64,000 bases of DNA, taken from IMG/VR virus record IMGVR_UViG_3300045988_101135, positions 66,762 through 130,761 of that record. The stretch is one strand, 5' to 3'. The DNA is from a virus. The translations under genes and the position numbers were made by a program. Below, in pieces: positions 7,473 through 63,007 of this stretch. Position 1 is the first letter of the stretch. Each line of letters opens with the position of its first letter. A model generated the notes under the pieces. It worked only from the letters and a program-made list of their open reading frames with translations, did no database searches and had not been told where the DNA came from.

Positions 7473-7987
7473 CATATATGTACGTATATCAATAACATAC
7501 AAGAAAAGTTAGATTTTCATTGTTTATGAATTATTTTTGTTAAATTTGCGATATTAGTTTCAGGAAGGGATTATAGAAATAGGAAAAAGTAAGAACCGGA
7601 CGTAACTAATAACAGTAGGAAATGAGAATCAGTACCATCAAACGTAACAACAGCATTCATATTATGTATAAAAACATTATGAATGATTTAGGTCAATTAA
7701 GAACTGTAGTTTCAAAATCCTATATTTATAATCTGATACAAAATCAAACCGGATTAAGTATCAAAACTATATCCCATGTACTTAACCATACCAAAGAATA
7801 GGATACGGATTCTTTGTGAAAAGCATATATTTTCATACATTTGTTCGTTCTTTAGTTTTAGTAGGGAAAAGTTTTTCATGGTATTTTAGTTTAGATTAGT
7901 TGAGGCAGGATTCGCAGTGATGCGGATCCTGTTTTGATTTACAGCGCTTTACCCAAAAAAGAAAAGCGAAAGTTGCTGATTATCAAT

Positions 7988-17600: not shown

Positions 17601-20600
17601 TTTTTACCATCGAGCAGGAAAAGATCTATACAGAGCAGATGGAAAAGTGGGATGCTGAAAATTCGGAACTGGAATTTAGCGAAAGTTATGCCACAAGAAT
17701 GGAATCCATATACAAAAAGGCTGAAGAAGAATTAGGGTATCCGGTTTCTCAAACAACCAAAGAATATCTTAATGCCCTATCCCGGCAAAAACGGATATTG
17801 AGGCAGCCTTTTATTGATAGCGGTGGTAATTTTGATGAGGTTGCCTATTTTAAAAGCAGCAATTACGAAGAAGAAGGACTGCTTCGTAAACAACGTAAGG
17901 AAGCAGCTTCAGAATACATATATGTAGGAACCAGGAGAGTGGAAAAAACCGGCGACCAACTTAAGATGGCCAAAGAAATACAAGCTATAAATGAAGTTTG
18001 GAGAAAGGAATCAAATAATGCCACTAATGCCGTATCAGAATCGTTTTTGCAAAAATTAAGAACGATTCAGAGCGAGTCTGGAGGAGAAGCTGCGCTGAAG
18101 ACACTTATGTTGGGAGGTCACCTGTCATTCAACGATCGGTTTTGGAATGATGTAGAATCAGAACAGTCGGCACGTACCGAATCAAATAACAAGGCTTCGT
18201 ATCTTAAAATGGCGCATGATATCATTAGTTCTACGACAAGTGATAGAGATGCGACTGACGTGGATTCTATTGTGAAAGATATAGAAAAAAATAAGGCTAT
18301 TATCAAGGAAATAATCGGAAACAATCGCGATGTGGCTGATATCGGAGAAATTAACGAAGCGACATTTACCTCATCCGAAAGAGATGCTTTTAGGGCCGCA
18401 TCTGAAGCTATTGAAGCCGATTACGCTATTTTGATAGATTATGCTAAGATGGTGGGTCTTGAAGATATTGATAAGTACCTTACTAAAAGCAGTAAGGCTG
18501 AAAACGAAGTAAATCAGTCTTATTTAAATGCTCTTGCTGACTCCAAGGAAGTGGAATGGAAGTTCGTACAACGTCATACTACGGCGAAGAAAGCAAAAAG
18601 GATTCAGGCTTTAAGGGATAAGCTGTTTAAGGCTGCTGATAACCGATATCTGTTTACCGTATCTGAAACCAACTACCTGTCAGAAAAGCTTGGTATAAGC
18701 AAAGAATTAGACGGTAGAGATTTCAGGAATGCTGTTAATGCTAAGATGGCCAGCTTATTTTTAAATAATACAAGAGAAGAGGGCGTAGAAGAAGCTAATG
18801 CTATTGTTAATGAATTTGCCAGAAGCCAGGTTTTTTCGTACTATAAACGCATGGCGCCTACCGGATATGCAGCTATGATCGACAAAATCGGTCGAGGTGA
18901 GATAGATGTGGCGCAAATGGTTAAGGACGTACAAAACGGTACATCCACCCAAGATTATGGCATGGACATATCGTACTTGTCTTTCGACCCTGCAAGGGCA
19001 TGGGTGGCTGAATCTGAAGCCGAAAATAGCGGTCGTAATCCTGATTATGTAAAAGATCATGGGTATGGTCATCGAATGCCTAAGAAAAGCCTGTATCGTG
19101 ACGAATCGTATTTCAATGACTTTGGTATCAAGTATGATGCTGACGGTAATGAGGTTGCTACTAAAAACGTAGAGCAGTGGAATATGATTCAAAAACTCAA
19201 GGAAATAAAAAGACAATCCCTTGATCTATACAAAGAGCAGAGCCCGAACCTGTATGCTATTCCACAGATATCCAAACAAGATATAGAACGTGTAGAAGGA
19301 TTGGGTATTAACTTCAAAAATACGGTTCGTAATTTTGTATCAGATCTGTGCCTGGACAGAGTAGACGATTCTCTATATGGTAAGACCAGGCAAGGAGAAG
19401 TGTATGATCCAGAAGACAGGCTTAGGTCTATACCTAAATACTACATATATGAATTGGAGAACCAAGATGATGTATCTCACGATTTTGGCTACTCTTATTC
19501 GATGCTTATGATGCAATCATCGTTATACAACGAAAAGCAGAAGTCTATAGAGCTTGCCCAAGGACTGGAGCAGATGTTACTAAATAAACAATTTGAAGGT
19601 GGTAAAAAGGCTGAAGCAACCCAAGCATATCAGATGTTCAGGGACTTCTTCAACGATCATTATTATGGCATTAGGATGAACACCAAAAAACTTACGGTGA
19701 ACATCGGAGGATATACGGTAGACCTTACAAGAATTATGATGGCTGTTGAAAGATTTATGTCGGTTATGAACTTGGCACTGTCTCCGTTTGTGGCAGCTAC
19801 CGGCGCCCTGACAGGCCATATCAACCTCATCATGGAATCAGCCGTAGGACAGTATATAAGCAAAGATTCCCTTAAATACGCATCGGCTGAGTTTTCCCGT
19901 CTTGCGCCATCTTGTATAGCAGAAACCGGAGACATAGATAGGAAAAGCAAATTATATGTCATAGGTGAGAGAATGGGGATATTCAATATCCGAAATCGTA
20001 TGTATGGTGCCGGATACAATAGAGCGGCCAGGACCTTAATGCGTTCGCCTATGTATGCTTTTATGGAAATCCTGAACTACCCTCTTGATCCGCAGGTTAT
20101 GATTGCTACTATGGACAATGTTCGTTATTACAAAGGCCGGTTCTACACGTTCCAAGATTTCAAGATGGAAAAAGAACGCAATAAAGAACAGAGTACCATA
20201 AAAAGAGAATGGAACGCATTAAAAGATCGTACTTTATGGAGTATGGTAGACGTCGTGGATGGAAAGGTGGTTGTAAAGCCGGGATCGGGTGTTACTGTTG
20301 AGGAAGTTGAAACCCAGATGGCTATAACCAGGAATCAAGTCCGTAGCTTGTCGCAGATATGTAACGGATCTTTGAATGAAGAAAACCGAACTGCCGCATC
20401 GCGCAACTGGATAGCCAGGTTCATGACCGCCCACCGAGGATGGTTGGTGCTGGCGGCTCAACGTCTGTGGAAAAGACGTGGCTTCAATTTCCAGACAATG
20501 CAAGAAGAGGAAGGGTTGTCAATTACGTTAAAGAATATGATAGCCAAAACATTTAGCTTAGCTTCCGAGTCTGGTATGAAAAACATCATAGATGCCTGGA

Positions 20601-56708: not shown

Positions 56709-57109
56709 TTTCTATCCTCCTTTATTAATTCTATTATAAACTTTTTATCTTGTTCCCACAATGGCAGCCCTTCTTTTACTGTGTATGCCACTGTTTCCCT
56801 CTCTCCTATTAATCGCACGGCAATCTCTCTTGCTTTCAAGTCATCCTCCTCATGCGATTTGTTTATTAAATCATAGGCACATGATTCCACCTTTTGCCTT
56901 TCGATTATTATCGAACCCATTAACTCGCTTATATGCGATCCTAAAAACGATAAGACATTAATAGCTTTCCCAATATCATTTGAAATAGCACTTGCTAAAT
57001 ACATCTTATCCATATACTCCGGCAAAGCCTCGTATGCCGTTTCTATGTTTTTATACTGATTTTCGTTTACCTCCCTTTTAATCAGTTCTTCAAATTCTTC
57101 TTTTAACAT
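56705..57109 (-). CDS. hypothetical protein (start trimmed to Met 57109; 134 aa)
   Basis: The track ORF (to 57256) would run through the tRNA-like element; the internal ATG (MLKEEFEEL) avoids this. Confidence 0.5.
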   Translation of the reverse strand: MLKEEFEELIKREVNENQYKNIETAYEALPEYMDKMYLASAISNDIGKAINVLSFLGSHISELMGSIIIERQKVESCAYDLINKSHEEDDLKAREIAVRLIGERETVAYTVKEGLPLWEQDKKFIIELIKEDRK

Positions 57110-57132: not shown

Positions 57133-57199
57133 GTGAGATCGCCGGAATCGAACCGACTTGCTGCACCATGAATCCCATAAAGCAAATGCTCCGATCTTC
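57133..57199 (-). tRNA. tRNA-like element 2 (T-arm gtcgg-TTCGATT-ccggc + acceptor 3' gatctca)
   Basis: Same T-arm core (ccggaatcgaaccg on the plus strand) as elements 1 and 3. The candidate 5' acceptor strand gaagatc pairs 5 of 7. The 67-nt span is short for a canonical tRNA. Confidence 0.4.
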
Positions 57200-57256
57200 G
57201 CAGATGGGAGCATTCTGTCTAAAGCATAAGAAAATTAATGAAGAAATTTTTCTCAC

Positions 57257-57337
57257 TTACGCCATAGCATCTAAAATAGCTATCAGCACTATTTCTATGA
57301 CAAACATAATAGAAAATATCTTAAATGCCTTTTTCAT
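57257..57337 (-). CDS. unlisted 26-aa hydrophobic peptide MKKAFKIFSIMFVIEIVLIAILDAMA
   Basis: ATG preceded at 9 nt by ggagg (strong SD); the peptide is a single predicted TM helix; below the track cutoff. Confidence 0.3.
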   Translation of the reverse strand: MKKAFKIFSIMFVIEIVLIAILDAMA

Positions 57338-57444: not shown

Positions 57445-57714
57445 CTACTCCCCCTCTATGGCAGCCTGTTCGTACCTACAAATCCAATCTCCATCTATAC
57501 AACTATCACTACGCGATAATAAACATTTATCCTTATAACAATCATAAAAAATACACCTATCACAACTGTAATCCTTAACGTCTACACAGCTAACTACCTT
57601 AGCATATACTATTCCATCACTGCCTTCTATTCCTTTTACCCCGAAAATAGAACCTTCTACCTCCTTACTCAAATCTAAGTCAGGCGCAAAGTCATATACG
57701 TTCATACCATCCAT
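57445..57714 (-). CDS. Cys-rich small protein (89 aa)
   Basis: CVDVKDYSCDRCIFYDCYKDKC...C...C. Confidence 0.4.
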   Translation of the reverse strand: MDGMNVYDFAPDLDLSKEVEGSIFGVKGIEGSDGIVYAKVVSCVDVKDYSCDRCIFYDCYKDKCLLSRSDSCIDGDWICRYEQAAIEGE

Positions 57715-57803
57715 ATTTTAATTGTTAAACATCCCGCTTAAAAAAAAATACTCACATAATGCAGTCCTCAACCCTTAATCTGTTGGAAGGAACCTATATA
57801 ATG

Positions 57804-57889
57804 CTGTTTTAAACCCTTATCATATTGAATTTTGTGGAAATGATCTACAGAACACTGTTTTAAAACGCTTATCTATTGAATTTTGTTGG
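57804..57889. repeat. imperfect direct repeat (2 x ~34 nt): ctgttttaaa(a)c(g)cttatc(a/t)tattgaattttgt(t)gg
   Basis: Two copies at 57804-57837 and 57855-57889. Confidence 0.5.
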
Positions 57890-58000
57890 TAGGGAGTGCC
57901 CTCCCTCTCCCCCTCTCCAACCCCGGCTAATCCTCCGGCTTTCCGCATAGAACCTGCGCTCTCGGCCTCACTACCGGCATACGGAGAGCGCTACAAGCTT
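57889..58000. other. GC/CT-rich structured island (possible small RNA)
   Basis: ccctccctctccccctctcc tract followed by nested hairpins: agggag-tgcc-ctccct, ccgg-ctaatcct-ccgg, and gcgctctc-20nt-gagagcgc. Confidence 0.3.
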
Positions 58001-58420
58001 ATACTCTGGCATGAAGTATGGGGTATTTAGAGATAATATCATTCCATAGAGAGAATAGAGAGCCTTCAGCCCACGCCCTACCGCCTGCTCCTCCTATCAA
58101 GATAGATATTTAAGCCTATAATCAAAGCCAATAAAGAAAAGCAAAAGACCATTACAATATTATACTGATCCGGTCCGTACTCCAACATAGAGCGAATACC
58201 AACCGACAGAAAATACAAGTCAGCTACTAATAAAAACCACCACATAAAATAAAAAAAAAATACAATAAGTATGTCCGAAAATACGGGGATTATAAAACCT
58301 AACTAATTGATAATCAAGCATACATAATTTTTAAGAAAAGTACAATAAGCCTAATTTTCAATCCATAGAGACGAAAAAGGCGGAATCCGGAACCCTATTT
58401 TGGGCCAGAAAACCGCATAA

Positions 58421-58514
58421 AGTTTCGTTTTAGACCAATTTTAACGACATGATATAGACAAAATACCGGCATTATATCCAAACTATCCTATTTTAGTTTC
58501 GTTTTAGACCAATA
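58421..58514. repeat. 19-nt direct repeat agtttcgttttagaccaat x2, spaced 75 nt
   Basis: Exact copies at 58421-58439 and 58496-58514. Confidence 0.5.
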
Positions 58515-58618
58515 TAGCTTACATCCGCCGTTCACTCTCAGAATATCCTACCCGTAAATAGAAAGAGTAGGATACAAAAATAGGGCTGCTCCGATATTCG
58601 AAACAACCCTACTCCTGT

Positions 58619-58825
58619 TTAAATACTGTTTATGTTTTCCTTCACGTAAGTTCGTGATGTATGGACTTTACGTTTGCATTTGTCCTTTCCCGTATCGGCA
58701 TGATACGCTTCTTTGAGATCACGATACAACATAAATTCCCGATACGCTCTTTTCCGCTTTTCTTTAGCTTCTTTCCTGGACAGACCGCGGACGTCTACCA
58801 TATGAGATTTAAATTTCCTTTCCAT
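58619..58825 (-). CDS. basic small protein (68 aa)
   Basis: Isolated ORF in the non-coding hub; Lys/Arg-rich. Confidence 0.35.
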   Translation of the reverse strand: MERKFKSHMVDVRGLSRKEAKEKRKRAYREFMLYRDLKEAYHADTGKDKCKRKVHTSRTYVKENINSI

Positions 58826-59043
58826 TTTCTTTATGCTTTAATTATGATTAACTCCAGCGGTTAAGAGCTTCGATATAGAAACCCTCCGCCTCTTTATACT
58901 CATTTTCACTGAGTGTTTCCACCGTCTCGATATAGTTACGCAATGTTATTTTTACGCAGATGTTTTTAGATTTATTGAACGCTTCAGTTAAAGCGTTGAT
59001 CATTTCTTTCTTTTCCATGTTATTATATTGTTTATAATTTAGA

Positions 59044-59110
59044 GGTTGCTCCGGAATCGAACCGAACGCGCATTCCTATCCTGTACGAATTTTATGCTAC
59101 AACCAACAGC
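59044..59110 (-). tRNA. tRNA-like element 3 (T-arm ttcgg-TTCGATT-ccgga; D-arm-like gctg-ttggttg-tagc)
   Basis: Shares ccggaatcgaaccga with element 2. The ggttgt / gcaacc acceptor pairing is possible, but the spacing is non-canonical. Confidence 0.35.
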
Positions 59111-59577
59111 CCGTAATTAGTACGTAGTTCTTGTGTACAGGCCCGTACTATGTTGTTATTATATTTTCCGTCTGCTACACAACTTAGCCACAAATAAAGG
59201 CGATTGTGTCCTTGCGTTTTGATACAACATGTTCCTACATGTTAGGCTACATGTTTATACCCTGTAATTTAATCTACAGCCTTGTCCTATTTTACGTGCA
59301 GGCAAGTAAGGCACGTTTCGGTCTAGAGATAAACCGCGTACAACGGTATGTTTTCCAAACTGTACTAACATACCTAACATAACTACATTTATCCAATGTA
59401 GTACATGCAGTAATACCAGCCCTTTAATTGCCAACGGCAAGGGCAAAGGTATATCTATCTCCAATATGTAAAATAACTCTCTGTTTTGTCAGCTTCAGTC
59501 TAAAGCATACGCGGGACATGCACCCACTGACAACGGCGTACAAGCGCGTTTAAAGGTACGCGCCCAACCTTGTTTTT

Positions 59578-60117
59578 TCACTGTTGATTGCTTTCGTGTG
59601 CTAAATACTCAGATACACACTTTGCAACGGTACGAAGCGAATAAGATTTGATCTTAACGGCCACATAAGTAGATTTATACTCGTCCGTCTCTTTAACGAT
59701 CCATTTTGCACTACTTTTCGTTTCCAACGTTTCCGCGGTCGCAAATCCGAAAGGCTTGTACTCTTCGCCATAAACTACATTATCAGCGCACCAATCAGCC
59801 GTTTTAGCCTCAACGCCTTTCTCTTTGTCTGCATTGGTATCCTTATACACTTTAGAGTATAAAGCAAATTTAACAAATGTATCGTCAACTTTCGGTAACA
59901 TTTGGCTACACACAGCTACCAGGCGTTTTTTATCCTTGGCGAGGGCTGCAACCTTTACGGCGTATTCTGCCGGTATTTCTAAGGCCTTGCAAATAGACTT
60001 AAGATCAGCTCCATTAGCAAATAAAGCGTTGTATAACTTTACGGCACCTACCAAATTTGCAGCATTTTCTTTGATAACAGCATTCTGTAGTTTGTTTACA
60101 TTTTTTTTAGTAATCAT
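59578..60117 (-). CDS. Ala/Lys-rich hypothetical protein (179 aa)
   Basis: Clean ORF inside the otherwise non-coding hub; the direction matches the DHH/PNKP operon. Confidence 0.55.
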   Translation of the reverse strand: MITKKNVNKLQNAVIKENAANLVGAVKLYNALFANGADLKSICKALEIPAEYAVKVAALAKDKKRLVAVCSQMLPKVDDTFVKFALYSKVYKDTNADKEKGVEAKTADWCADNVVYGEEYKPFGFATAETLETKSSAKWIVKETDEYKSTYVAVKIKSYSLRTVAKCVSEYLAHESNQQ

Positions 60118-60344
60118 AACATTATGTATTTATTTGTTAAACAAGTGATATTCAATTCAATAGCCCACAACGCAAGCTATTAACAGATACAGATATAGCG
60201 TTATCCAACGGATACACTATATAGGTTCATCATGTCGGCATGTGTTATCGCTTTAACACATTGCAAATATACTACTTTTATTGTTACTACAAATATATAT
60301 ACTATATTTTTTTTGTTAACTTGTATTAATTTCGATTCTATTAT

Positions 60345-60496
60345 CTGATTATCAGCAAATTATAAAACACGCAAGAGCAGTATTATACGCGTACATTAAT
60401 ATGTAGGATATATGCTTATTTAAGTGGCTTATAATCAATATGTTACAATAACACATTGATTATCAATAATTTAAATAAGTGGTTGATAATCAGAGA
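60345..60496. repeat. cluster of TGAT(T/A)ATCA palindromic motifs plus a 20-nt direct repeat taagtgg(c)tt(g)ataatca
   Basis: ctgattatcag (60345), cttataatcaat (60428), attgattatcaat (60455), ttgataatcag (60483); iteron-like. Confidence 0.45.
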
Positions 60497-60595
60497 GTTT
60501 TTAAGTTTGAGGTAAAAACGCGTTTTCGGTTTTCCAGCGAAGGGGGTGTGGGGGAGAAAACGCGTTTCGGGGGCGGGAGGTTCGTGATAGGTACC

Positions 60596-60720
60596 CCCTC
60601 TCTCCCATCACATAAACATCTTTTACCCTCTCTCCCATCACATAAACCTCTTTCTCACATATCTCCCACATTACATAAACATCTTTTACCCTCTCTCCCA
60701 TCACATACCCACCTCACACA
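60596..60720. repeat. tandem ~30-bp polypyrimidine repeat ccctctctcccatcacataaacatctttta (about 4 degenerate copies)
   Basis: Periodic repeat visible directly in the sequence; generates the spurious plus-strand ORF 60479..60736 with a repeated LPSLPSHK. Confidence 0.6.
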
Positions 60721-60724
60721 CAAC

Positions 60725-60759
60725 AAAAAAAAATAGGATTGATAGAAACCAATCCTATT
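60725..60759 (-). terminator. rho-independent terminator (10-bp stem aataggattg/caatcctatt, then T9 on the minus strand)
   Basis: Perfect hairpin 20 nt after the DHH gene stop; the A9 on the plus strand at 60725-60733 reads as a U-run on the minus strand. Confidence 0.65.
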
Positions 60760-60779
60760 TAAAACACGACCTTATTAAT

Positions 60780-61766
60780 TTATTGAATTGAAGTAAGTTT
60801 ATGGTTTTCAAGGAAGTCCTTAAACTGGTCACTTGATACGTCTATAACGAATCCAGCAGCACCAGCATGTCCTCCACCACCGAATCTCTTACTTACCTCA
60901 CAGCAATCCGCGCTGTCTTCCACGCATTCATAAAGAGAGAACCTAACCTTACCACCTGGCATGATACAAAATGGCATAAGGGCTTTAATTTTTCTACCGT
61001 CTAACCAGTCTCGTGTAAGAGAATCAAATACTTTAGAACTAAATTCCGTAGTATTCATCGCCACGACCTTAACCTCGTCTACGTAAGCTTCGAACGAATA
61101 CGCACTTACCTCTTGTTCGTTTTTACCAGCCATGTAGTTAATTATAGCACGTCCTTCTTTAGCGAGATCATAAAAAATAAGATCAATTTCATTGTCCTTC
61201 ATATCTTCTTTAAAGTGATCATACAAATACGACAATGCTATTAATACATTGAGTCTTATTTTTGATCTCAAGGCATACTGGATAGCTACTACCGTATCCC
61301 ATCCTAATTCAGAATCTTTATTCCACACATCGTAGTCTGACAGGCACCGGACGATCGCCGGCACCTTCCCCATCAGCAGGTCCGAGGCCAGAGCGCACGC
61401 ACCGACACCGACTCTCCTCAACCCTGGAACTACGAACCCCCATGTCTTACTATCTTCGATAATCCCCTTATGATGATCTATCCACATCAGGCTCTTTCCT
61501 TCATCAAGCCATTTCTTGAAAACCGTTTTAGAATCGGCTCCGAAAGACACGTCAAGAACATAAACAACATCTAAGTCACGCACTTGGTCAACAACTTTCT
61601 TAACATCATCTTCATACGAATACGGGATATAAACAACATCCTTGTTTTTACTGTGTTCATACATAGTTGCGATGGCTGCCGACACAACGCCATCTAAATC
61701 CGATTTATGATAAACTATCGCTGTTTTCTTTACTTTCATGATACAAACTTGTATATTTGATACCAC
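60780..61766 (-). CDS. DHH-DHHA1 family phosphoesterase (NrnA/RecJ-like)
   Basis: YHKSDLDGVVSA (motif I), IDHHKG (DHH motif), C-terminal GGGHAGAAGF (DHHA1 GGGH motif). The true start is probably MKVKK at 61739. Confidence 0.7.
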   Translation of the reverse strand: MVSNIQVCIMKVKKTAIVYHKSDLDGVVSAAIATMYEHSKNKDVVYIPYSYEDDVKKVVDQVRDLDVVYVLDVSFGADSKTVFKKWLDEGKSLMWIDHHKGIIEDSKTWGFVVPGLRRVGVGACALASDLLMGKVPAIVRCLSDYDVWNKDSELGWDTVVAIQYALRSKIRLNVLIALSYLYDHFKEDMKDNEIDLIFYDLAKEGRAIINYMAGKNEQEVSAYSFEAYVDEVKVVAMNTTEFSSKVFDSLTRDWLDGRKIKALMPFCIMPGGKVRFSLYECVEDSADCCEVSKRFGGGGHAGAAGFVIDVSSDQFKDFLENHKLTSIQ

Positions 61767-62646: not shown

Positions 62647-63007
62647 CTTCGTCCTTAACCTTCACAATATCATAAACCGCATACTGATTATCACCGATAT
62701 CCCAACCTAACGAAGACAGTACATCACGGAGGTAAATACGTCTATATTTCTCACCTTGTTTATTTAATAAAAACGATCTCTCGTCTTCTACCTTAGAAGG
62801 AGCTATATACAAATTAGAATCCAACACCCCTTTAAACTCAGCTCCTTCTTCCATACCAATAATAACCGCATCTTCGATACCCATCCATTTCAGATTGTCC
62901 ACCGATATGGTCATAATCCGATCTTTGCTAATAGAAAGCTTTCTGATTTTAGCTTCTTTTGTCTTAGAACCTACATAGGTTTTACTGCTTAAAAAGTTTA
63001 TCTTCAT
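62585..63007 (-). CDS. hypothetical protein (140 aa)
   Basis: ORF in the minus array. Confidence 0.45.
   Translation of the reverse strand: MKINFLSSKTYVGSKTKEAKIRKLSISKDRIMTISVDNLKWMGIEDAVIIGMEEGAEFKGVLDSNLYIAPSKVEDERSFLLNKQGEKYRRIYLRDVLSSLGWDIGDNQYAVYDIVKVKDEDGVFCLVPREIKKSKFEKGE

Follow-up and report, generated by a model that had tools for sequence, protein, structure and literature searches.

A conserved control module with a large structured RNA and a candidate packaging start in an Epsilon crAss-like phage

The 64,000 nucleotides (nt) of virus DNA analysed here, referred to as the window, are part of the IMG/VR record IMGVR_UViG_3300045988_101135 and belong to an Epsilon crAss-like phage about 88% identical to crAssE-Sib (OR575929; 151,256 bp, source human gut virome). 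Our subject is a 3-kb region of this window (57715-60779), called here the hub, of which OR575929 is the only close GenBank relative. The hub is a conserved control module with four small genes, a folded RNA of about 520 nt and several sets of repeats; the RNA is previously undescribed and has no Rfam family. We propose, at about even chances, that this module consists of an operon together with a pac-type start of virion DNA at a pair of 19-nt repeats, the whole being bounded by two tandem arrays.

Genes and transcription signals of the hub

On the minus strand, the hub presents the terminator of an NrnA-like gene, array B, a C-rich block, TGATWATCA palindromes, a promoter with leader, and the open reading frame (ORF) ORF179. 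These are followed by the RNA of about 520 nt, ORF56, ORF68, a terminator, the 19-nt repeat pair, ORF55, a GC-rich block and array A. Strain comparisons are based on 70 aligned sequences, all distinct and each covering the hub; variable sites are given below for the first, second and third codon position.

60264-60297, minus: Bacteroides-type promoter, -33 element TTTG (60293-60290) and -7 element TATATTTG (60271-60264), 18 nt apart
60120-60262, minus: structured 5' leader of ORF179, with hairpins 60240-60261, 60194-60222 and 60163-60177
59578-60117, minus: ORF179, variable sites 67/42/158
59042-59577, minus: structured RNA of about 520 nt with covariation (536 nt between ORF179 and ORF56; core 59113-59560)
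59042-59112, minus: tRNA-like element at the 3' end of the RNA, with acceptor-like stem, covarying hairpin and T-arm with canonical loop GGTTCGATTCC, D-arm absent
58848-59018, minus: ORF56, small protein, variable sites 7/7/19
58619-58825, minus: ORF68, small, very basic protein, variable sites 19/9/40
58575-58615, minus: terminator ending the ORF179 operon, 3' of ORF68; consensus fold with a 17-bp stem, then ATTTTTGT
58545-58573: second hairpin after the operon terminator
58078-58245, minus: ORF55, small hydrophobic protein, variable sites 14/6/27, intact in 68 of the 70 strains
57890-58077: GC-rich block, about 95% conserved across strains

The initial annotation regarded the hub as non-coding. 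This description is too sweeping: the four ORFs, with their excess of variable sites at third codon positions, occupy 1086 of the 3065 nt, and the structured RNA gene and structured leader take up another 0.7 kb or so. Pfam and PHROGs returned no match for ORF179, ORF68 and ORF55, and ORF179 has no recognisable family or fold (an orphan fold). ORF56 gave a weak DUF6241 match in a domain-library scan; in about 23% of strains it is deleted or replaced (window 58825-59005), with the flanking RNA and ORF68 retained. An ORF annotated in GenBank within 59092-59464 carries no codon-position signal (37/36/35) and is intact in 9 of the 70 strains only. Identity across strains is about 0.93-0.95 for most non-coding blocks and about 0.85 for ORF179; this higher conservation of the non-coding blocks suggests constraint on the DNA or RNA itself.

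The promoter agrees by sequence match with the pattern of the Bacteroides primary sigma factor (-7 TAnnTTTG, with -33 TTTG about 19-21 nt upstream), its spacing being 18 nt, and its -7 box is the only TAnnTTTG box of the non-coding hub that is retained in 99% of strains. In the leader that follows, compensatory changes affect 12 pairs on the minus strand versus 5 on the plus strand. From this sequence organisation we infer that promoter, leader, ORF179, RNA, ORF56, ORF68 and terminator form one operon, which would be read by host RNA polymerase.

The structured RNA and its relatives

The consensus fold of the RNA contains 143 pairs over 62 distinct sequences, with 99.3% of cells paired. Compensatory changes were found in 25 pairs (185 cells), versus 13.4 +/- 1.9 pairs (57 cells) when columns were shuffled; the observed value was reached in 0 of 500 such shuffles, and controls with slid partners gave 1-8 compensatory pairs. 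G-U intermediates are frequent in the alignment and valid on the minus strand only, so the RNA is co-directional with the genes. The window sequence of the RNA folds on its own with z = -2.7, and codon-position signal is absent from the region. The initial annotation, which saw a hub of binding sites, missed that structured RNA accounts for much of the conserved non-coding DNA.

Phages with an ORF179 of only about 40% identity keep the order of the hub elements. These distant loci were gathered by exact-protein look-ups; a protein-alignment scan found too few conserved stretches. In them a gene-free stretch of 630-780 nt comes after an ORF179-like gene, then a pair of small ORFs at the place of ORF68, then another gap. 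Nucleotide searches with nhmmer recovered homologs of the RNA (E from 1e-26 to 1e-31), the C-rich palindrome block, located 5' of the ORF179-like gene (E from 3e-16 to 9e-9), and the block with the 19-nt repeats (E = 2e-8). The motif ATTGGTYYAAAACGAAAC is kept at the equivalent place with spacing of about 74-90 nt, and tandem arrays stand at equivalent positions, those with 41-42-nt units being analogous to array A. A 147-kb contig from another clade shows the full order, terminal array included.

At the 3' end of the RNA, the tRNA-like element differs from a tRNA in having no D-arm, no 7-nt anticodon loop and no Rfam tRNA match, and ARAGORN gave nothing convincing, whether its intron and low-stringency options were on or off. 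It does not qualify as a tmRNA either: the ARAGORN tmRNA search was negative, the Rfam tmRNA model reached 7.1 bits over 11 nt, and the third acceptor pair is G-C. Rfam recognised no family in the window at the gathering threshold or at E <= 10, and ordinary tRNAs only in the distant loci. Group I and group II intron models likewise gave no match at E <= 10, GOLLD and ROOL models matched neither the window nor the distant loci, and no match to the Y RNA/YrlA model was obtained; the Ro60-like gene of crAssE-Sib, at 73.1-74.7 kb of its record, is not adjacent to the hub.

Two known groups of RNAs offer instructive comparison. Like GOLLD and ROOL, the hub RNA is a phage-carried structured RNA of several hundred nt, without known function, beside tRNA-type sequence and tRNA genes; it differs from them in matching neither model at E <= 10 and in being predicted to be co-transcribed with, and conserved beside, a specific protein gene. 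With MALAT1 mascRNA and YrlA it shares the T-arm with GGTTCGATTCC loop and the acceptor-like stem at the 3' end of a longer RNA, and the phage genome encodes a Ro60-like protein and a CCA-adding enzyme. Here the differences are that the hub element lacks a D-arm and a 7-nt anticodon loop, that the Ro60-like gene lies about 75 kb away and that processing is putative. The tRNA-like element would probably act as a processing signal for tRNA-maturation enzymes, by which the large RNA would be freed from the operon transcript. The RNA probably acts together with the NrnA-like protein and polynucleotide kinase encoded next door, with the CCA-adding enzyme and Ro60-like protein encoded elsewhere, or with ORF179.

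A bolder proposal is that the RNA with its tRNA-like end and its constant upstream neighbour ORF179 constitute a new class of large phage ribonucleoprotein, conserved across crAss-like phages of about 150 kb, sited beside the virion DNA start and acting in trans. It might, for example, take part in packaging or RNA repair or be a decoy for host defences that target tRNAs, and would not be a passive untranslated region. We put this forward tentatively, as a possibility with the chances somewhat against it.

Two further observations concern the RNA and tRNA-like sequences. About half of the strains have an extra hairpin right after the ORF179 stop codon (window about 59560-59577), with the compensatory forms GGAGAGC-GCCGTTAA-GCTCTCC in some strains and GGGCGGAC...GTCCGCC in others. 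There is also a second tRNA-like fragment on the minus strand at window 57135-57225, with a T-arm (GTCGGTTCGATTCCGGC) and a bulged acceptor-like stem. On one side of it is the ATG at 57108, the likely true start of the phrog_15742 gene, and on the other a hydrophobic ORF of 26 codons (57256-57336). The fragment occurs in crAssE-Sib as well and is called by neither ARAGORN nor Rfam.

Repeats, the putative DNA start and competing explanations

The repeat families named in the initial annotation were all found at or near the positions given there, in excess of chance. The corresponding features are as follows.

58421-58439 and 58495-58513: 19-nt repeat pair AGTTTCGTTTTAGACCAAT, candidate terminase (pac) recognition sites
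between 58536 and 58537 (region 58514-58560): site equivalent to the PhageTerm start of crAssE-Sib, assuming that position 1 of its record is that start
58308-58316: fourth hub palindrome TGATAATCA, isolated
57745-57895: array A, hypervariable, upstream of ORF89; 51-nt unit with CTGTTTTAAAACAG palindrome, two copies in the window
60344-60494: TGATWATCA palindrome cluster, copies at 60346, 60457 and 60484
60467-60600, minus (G-rich on plus): C-rich block with two AAAACGCGTTTT palindromes, 60514-60526 and 60556-60568
60596-60722: array B, hypervariable; 30-nt unit in the window, minus-strand core TTTATGTGATGGGAGAG
60731-60760, minus: terminator of the NrnA-like gene, a hairpin with 13-bp stem followed by the T-run TTTTTTGTTG, noted before as a strong terminator beside a polypyrimidine array

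The contig of crAssE-Sib is pseudo-circular, and its start was predicted by PhageTerm with p = 1.5e-22, from a NEBNext ligation library of DNA from DNase-treated virus particles (Babkin et al. 2024, PMC11054128). Position 1 of the OR575929 record aligns to window position 58537 and its last base to 58536, with the window reading straight across. This putative start lies 24 nt to the right of the second 19-mer and 8 nt to the left of a hairpin, and its flanks, CGTTCACT before and CTCAGAATA after it, are near-invariant in the commonest strain variants. The suggestion that the hub holds a genome terminus therefore stands in so far as the start of the sister phage maps inside it; the place is away from the arrays that had been emphasised and beside the 19-mer pair. 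That pair had been described with a spacing of 75 nt. Both exact copies are present, at 58421 and 58495, and their spacing is 74 nt, as it is in all 54 strains with two copies. Even with 3 mismatches allowed, AGTTTCGTTTTAGACCAAT has no further copies in the 64 kb (expected 0.04).

The 19-nt repeats most plausibly represent the recognition (pac) site of terminase. Short motifs repeated at a fixed spacing of 74 nt stand beside the putative cut, and the motif is present in distant phages. Full-length contigs have the hub internal, or are broken at an array with overlapping ends, as circular permutation predicts. Packaging would then be of the headful type, with a circularly permuted genome filled into heads from the 19-mer site. 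The pac sites of headful phages (repeated hexamers of P1, pacL and pacR boxes of SPP1, P22) similarly combine a unique start with short repeats at fixed spacing, and the circular assembly is as expected for permuted, terminally redundant DNA. The difference is one of location: pac of P1, SPP1 and P22 lies in or beside terS, whereas the hub site is about 20 kb from the terminase genes, and its binding and cutting are putative. In T5 the first-step-transfer region is a repeat-rich non-coding terminal region, and in T7 short repeat arrays flank the terminal repeat. Both resemble the hub in having unrelated repeat and palindrome families near a genome end, beside small early-type genes with host-type promoters; they differ in that the hub has no demonstrated terminal repeat and that much of its non-coding DNA is RNA structure.

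Several points weigh against our reading of the hub as an operon with a pac-type start. The terminus is backed by one sentence in one paper (PMC11054128), which reports a read-start peak for the sister phage only and does not state the packaging class (pac, cos or direct terminal repeat), and that the OR575929 record was rotated to begin at the PhageTerm start is our own deduction. None of the mapped contig ends (about 240 loci) falls at 58537, and the site is not in or next to a small terminase gene, TerS and TerL being about 20 kb away. ARAGORN calls no tRNA at the tRNA-like element, with a sub-threshold call only at 80% stringency. The structured RNA is itself a prediction, with putative transcription and processing, its link to ORF179 is drawn from conserved adjacency, and the roles of the arrays are suggested by position and conservation. 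Finally, the function of the GC-rich block is unexplained despite its conservation of about 95%. This block (about 57885-58078) has no excess folding energy (z = 0.0 and +0.6 on the two strands), which rules it out as structured RNA; it shows only 3 compensatory pairs, no coding signal and no match in distant loci.

The direct repeat at 57804-57889 consists of two copies of 34-35 nt, 51 nt apart, which differ by small indels and have a similarity of about 85%; its core TTAAAACAGNNNTNTNTAG has exactly two minus-strand copies, 57794-57812 and 57845-57863. Array A has units of 21 or 51 nt in 2-9 copies across strains, giving segments of 120-550 nt. The repeat of 30 bp spans 60596-60707 with 3.6 copies and is the top-scoring array of the window (TRF score 155); in the 70 strains, array B varies in unit length (27-33 nt), copy number (2-12) and segment length (185-716 nt). 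TGATWATCA occurs six times in the window (1.5 expected), four of them in the hub. Also present are a direct repeat of 22 nt and, at 60415-60479, an inverted repeat of 31 nt whose outer pair co-varies (24 strains with CG, 24 with UA), which fits an RNA hairpin or a DNA palindrome. The C-rich block, with identity of 0.95-0.99 among strains, contains the twice-repeated AAAACGCGTTT, itself palindromic, at 60515 and 60557. Palindromes and arrays would probably bind regulators that control the transcription units on the two sides.

Runs of G, conspicuous in a genome of 36% GC, were observed at window 57890-57916 (minus strand GGGGTTGGAGAGGGGGAGAGGGAGGG, beside array A; GGGGAGGGGAGGCACC is its distant-clade counterpart) and 60530-60580 (plus strand GGGGGTGTGGGGGAG...GGGGGCGGGAGG, between palindromes). 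Both sites have G-quadruplex potential. Outside the hub, TGATTATCA palindromes occur at 7977-7985, between ORFs, and at 62685-62693, just upstream of the start of a polynucleotide-kinase-like ORF and overlapping the tail of the preceding predicted ORF. These two hint at a shared regulator.

The hub could instead be a purely regulatory and RNA-gene region, whose repeats would be promoters or operators for phage or virion RNA polymerase and regulators, with the PhageTerm peak an artefact or minor. All elements do lie upstream of or within minus-strand transcription units, array A directly precedes the long gene block starting at ORF89, and TGATWATCA recurs in two other intergenic regions (7977 and 62685). 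Moreover, the phage encodes a virion RNA polymerase, for which no promoters are known, and the hub separates two compositional domains. Yet the motifs of arrays A and B occur nowhere else in the 64-kb window and are therefore ruled out as general promoters, the PhageTerm signal came from a suitable library, and the flanks of the start and the phased 19-mers are conserved without RNA or coding signal. We consider this explanation unlikely.

Distinctly less probable is a replication origin, which the initial annotation had proposed; the arrays would then be initiator iterons, the AT-rich stretch 60270-60345 an unwinding element and the palindromes accessory sites. Epsilon phages have no DNA polymerase of their own (PMC11054128), so that a host-dependent origin is needed somewhere. 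The ingredients are present, namely palindromes, an AT-rich stretch and arrays with units of 27-33 nt and of 51 nt, and arrays occupy equivalent positions in distant phages. There is also a modest compositional step at the hub (window about 57.9 kb), from GC skew -0.30 on the left to -0.19 on the right and AT skew -0.14 to -0.05, and the cumulative AT-skew minimum lies at OR575929 150,663. However, cumulative GC skew of this complete relative genome has its minimum at 17,716 and maximum at 110,658, exactly at the two gene-strand switches and not at the hub, and a matching step half a genome away was not seen. DnaA boxes (TTATCCACA, at most 1 mismatch) show no enrichment, with 27 in the window versus 21.7 expected and 1 of the 27 in the hub. 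The AT-rich stretch holds the conserved promoter, and the arrays vary freely between strains, both in the length of their units (21/51 and 27-33 nt) and in the number of copies (2-12). Helicase and primase are encoded at a distance of more than 20 kb, an initiator gene is not recognisable, and ORF179 has no initiator-like fold. The iteron origins of lambda, plasmids and P1 share with the hub tandem direct repeats beside an AT-rich stretch; they differ in that the hub lacks an adjacent recognisable initiator, DnaA boxes and a skew switch, and in that its units vary between strains. The compositional step itself occurs without a change in gene direction and suggests two differently expressed or replicated domains.

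Very improbable, finally, is a long direct terminal repeat formed by the 2.85-kb segment between the arrays, with the arrays as physical ends of virion DNA. The 80 IMG/VR contigs with ORF179 include about 14 with an end in array B and about 16 with an end in array A; very many Logan contigs of 2.72-2.84 kb equal the inter-array segment exactly, and two near-full-length contigs (148,183 and 141,445 bp) miss just this segment. The geometry of contig ends nevertheless speaks strongly against this repeat. Searches with flanking genes showed that contigs end at each array from both sides, which indicates that assembly broke at tandem repeats of variable make-up. Both ends of four full-length contigs lie in array A, and both ends of another in array B, overlapping by 0-42 nt within repeat units. 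The segment occurs twice in none of 89 and 114 contigs, and the reported start lies inside it, not at its edges. Repeats longer than the assembler word length explain the breaks: the two arrays are where short-read assemblies break.

Genomic context and significance

The genes of the window switch from the plus to the minus strand at about 22.7 kb and keep the minus strand to its end, so the hub lies within a long minus-strand block. To its right are genes for an NrnA-like phosphoesterase, polynucleotide kinase, tRNAs and replication accessory functions, to its left many small genes. The immediate neighbours are:

60780-61766, minus: NrnA-like DHH phosphoesterase gene, with DHH/DHHA1 and phrog_4771 matches
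57445-57714: ORF89, first gene of the long gene block

In crAssE-Sib and about 20 of the 70 strains, array B and the NrnA-like gene are separated by an extra gene of 130 amino acids (phrog_1365; crAssE-Sib 2226-2618); at this site (60707-60795) the window has the terminator hairpin only. TerS and TerL, at 20.1-23.2 kb of the record, have no match in Pfam and PHROGs. In OR575929 the Ro60-like protein gene (73,091-74,725) directly follows tRNA-Tyr and tRNA-Lys, and Rfam detected no Y RNA in the 50-kb stretch surrounding it. The same genome encodes a CCA-adding or poly(A) polymerase-type enzyme (137,063-137,725), two TnpB genes and a diversity-generating retroelement.

One further record, IMGVR_UViG_3300045988_105517, is 253 kb long, compared with a genome of about 150 kb, and contains the hub once; a chimera and a relative with a larger genome are both possible. 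The scan of 185,579 bacterial and archaeal genomes gave a sole match, the 3.9-kb contig NZ_DXLG01000138.1 binned into a metagenome-assembled Veillonella genome, which is probably an orphan inter-array piece, mis-binned. In the literature searched, neither the hub region nor the structured RNA is described, and no cultured member of this phage group is reported.

The array breaks explain why assemblies of these phages split at two fixed places and leave an orphan contig of 2.8 kb, which is relevant to the counting and binning of phages. Few phage groups are as widespread in human gut data as this one, and clusters of ORF179 protein at 90% identity have up to 2,680 member sequences each. For these phages, the hub offers a candidate packaging signal that is directly testable in existing virome reads, and a large, strongly supported structured RNA of no known family that has stayed beside an orphan-fold protein over deep divergence.

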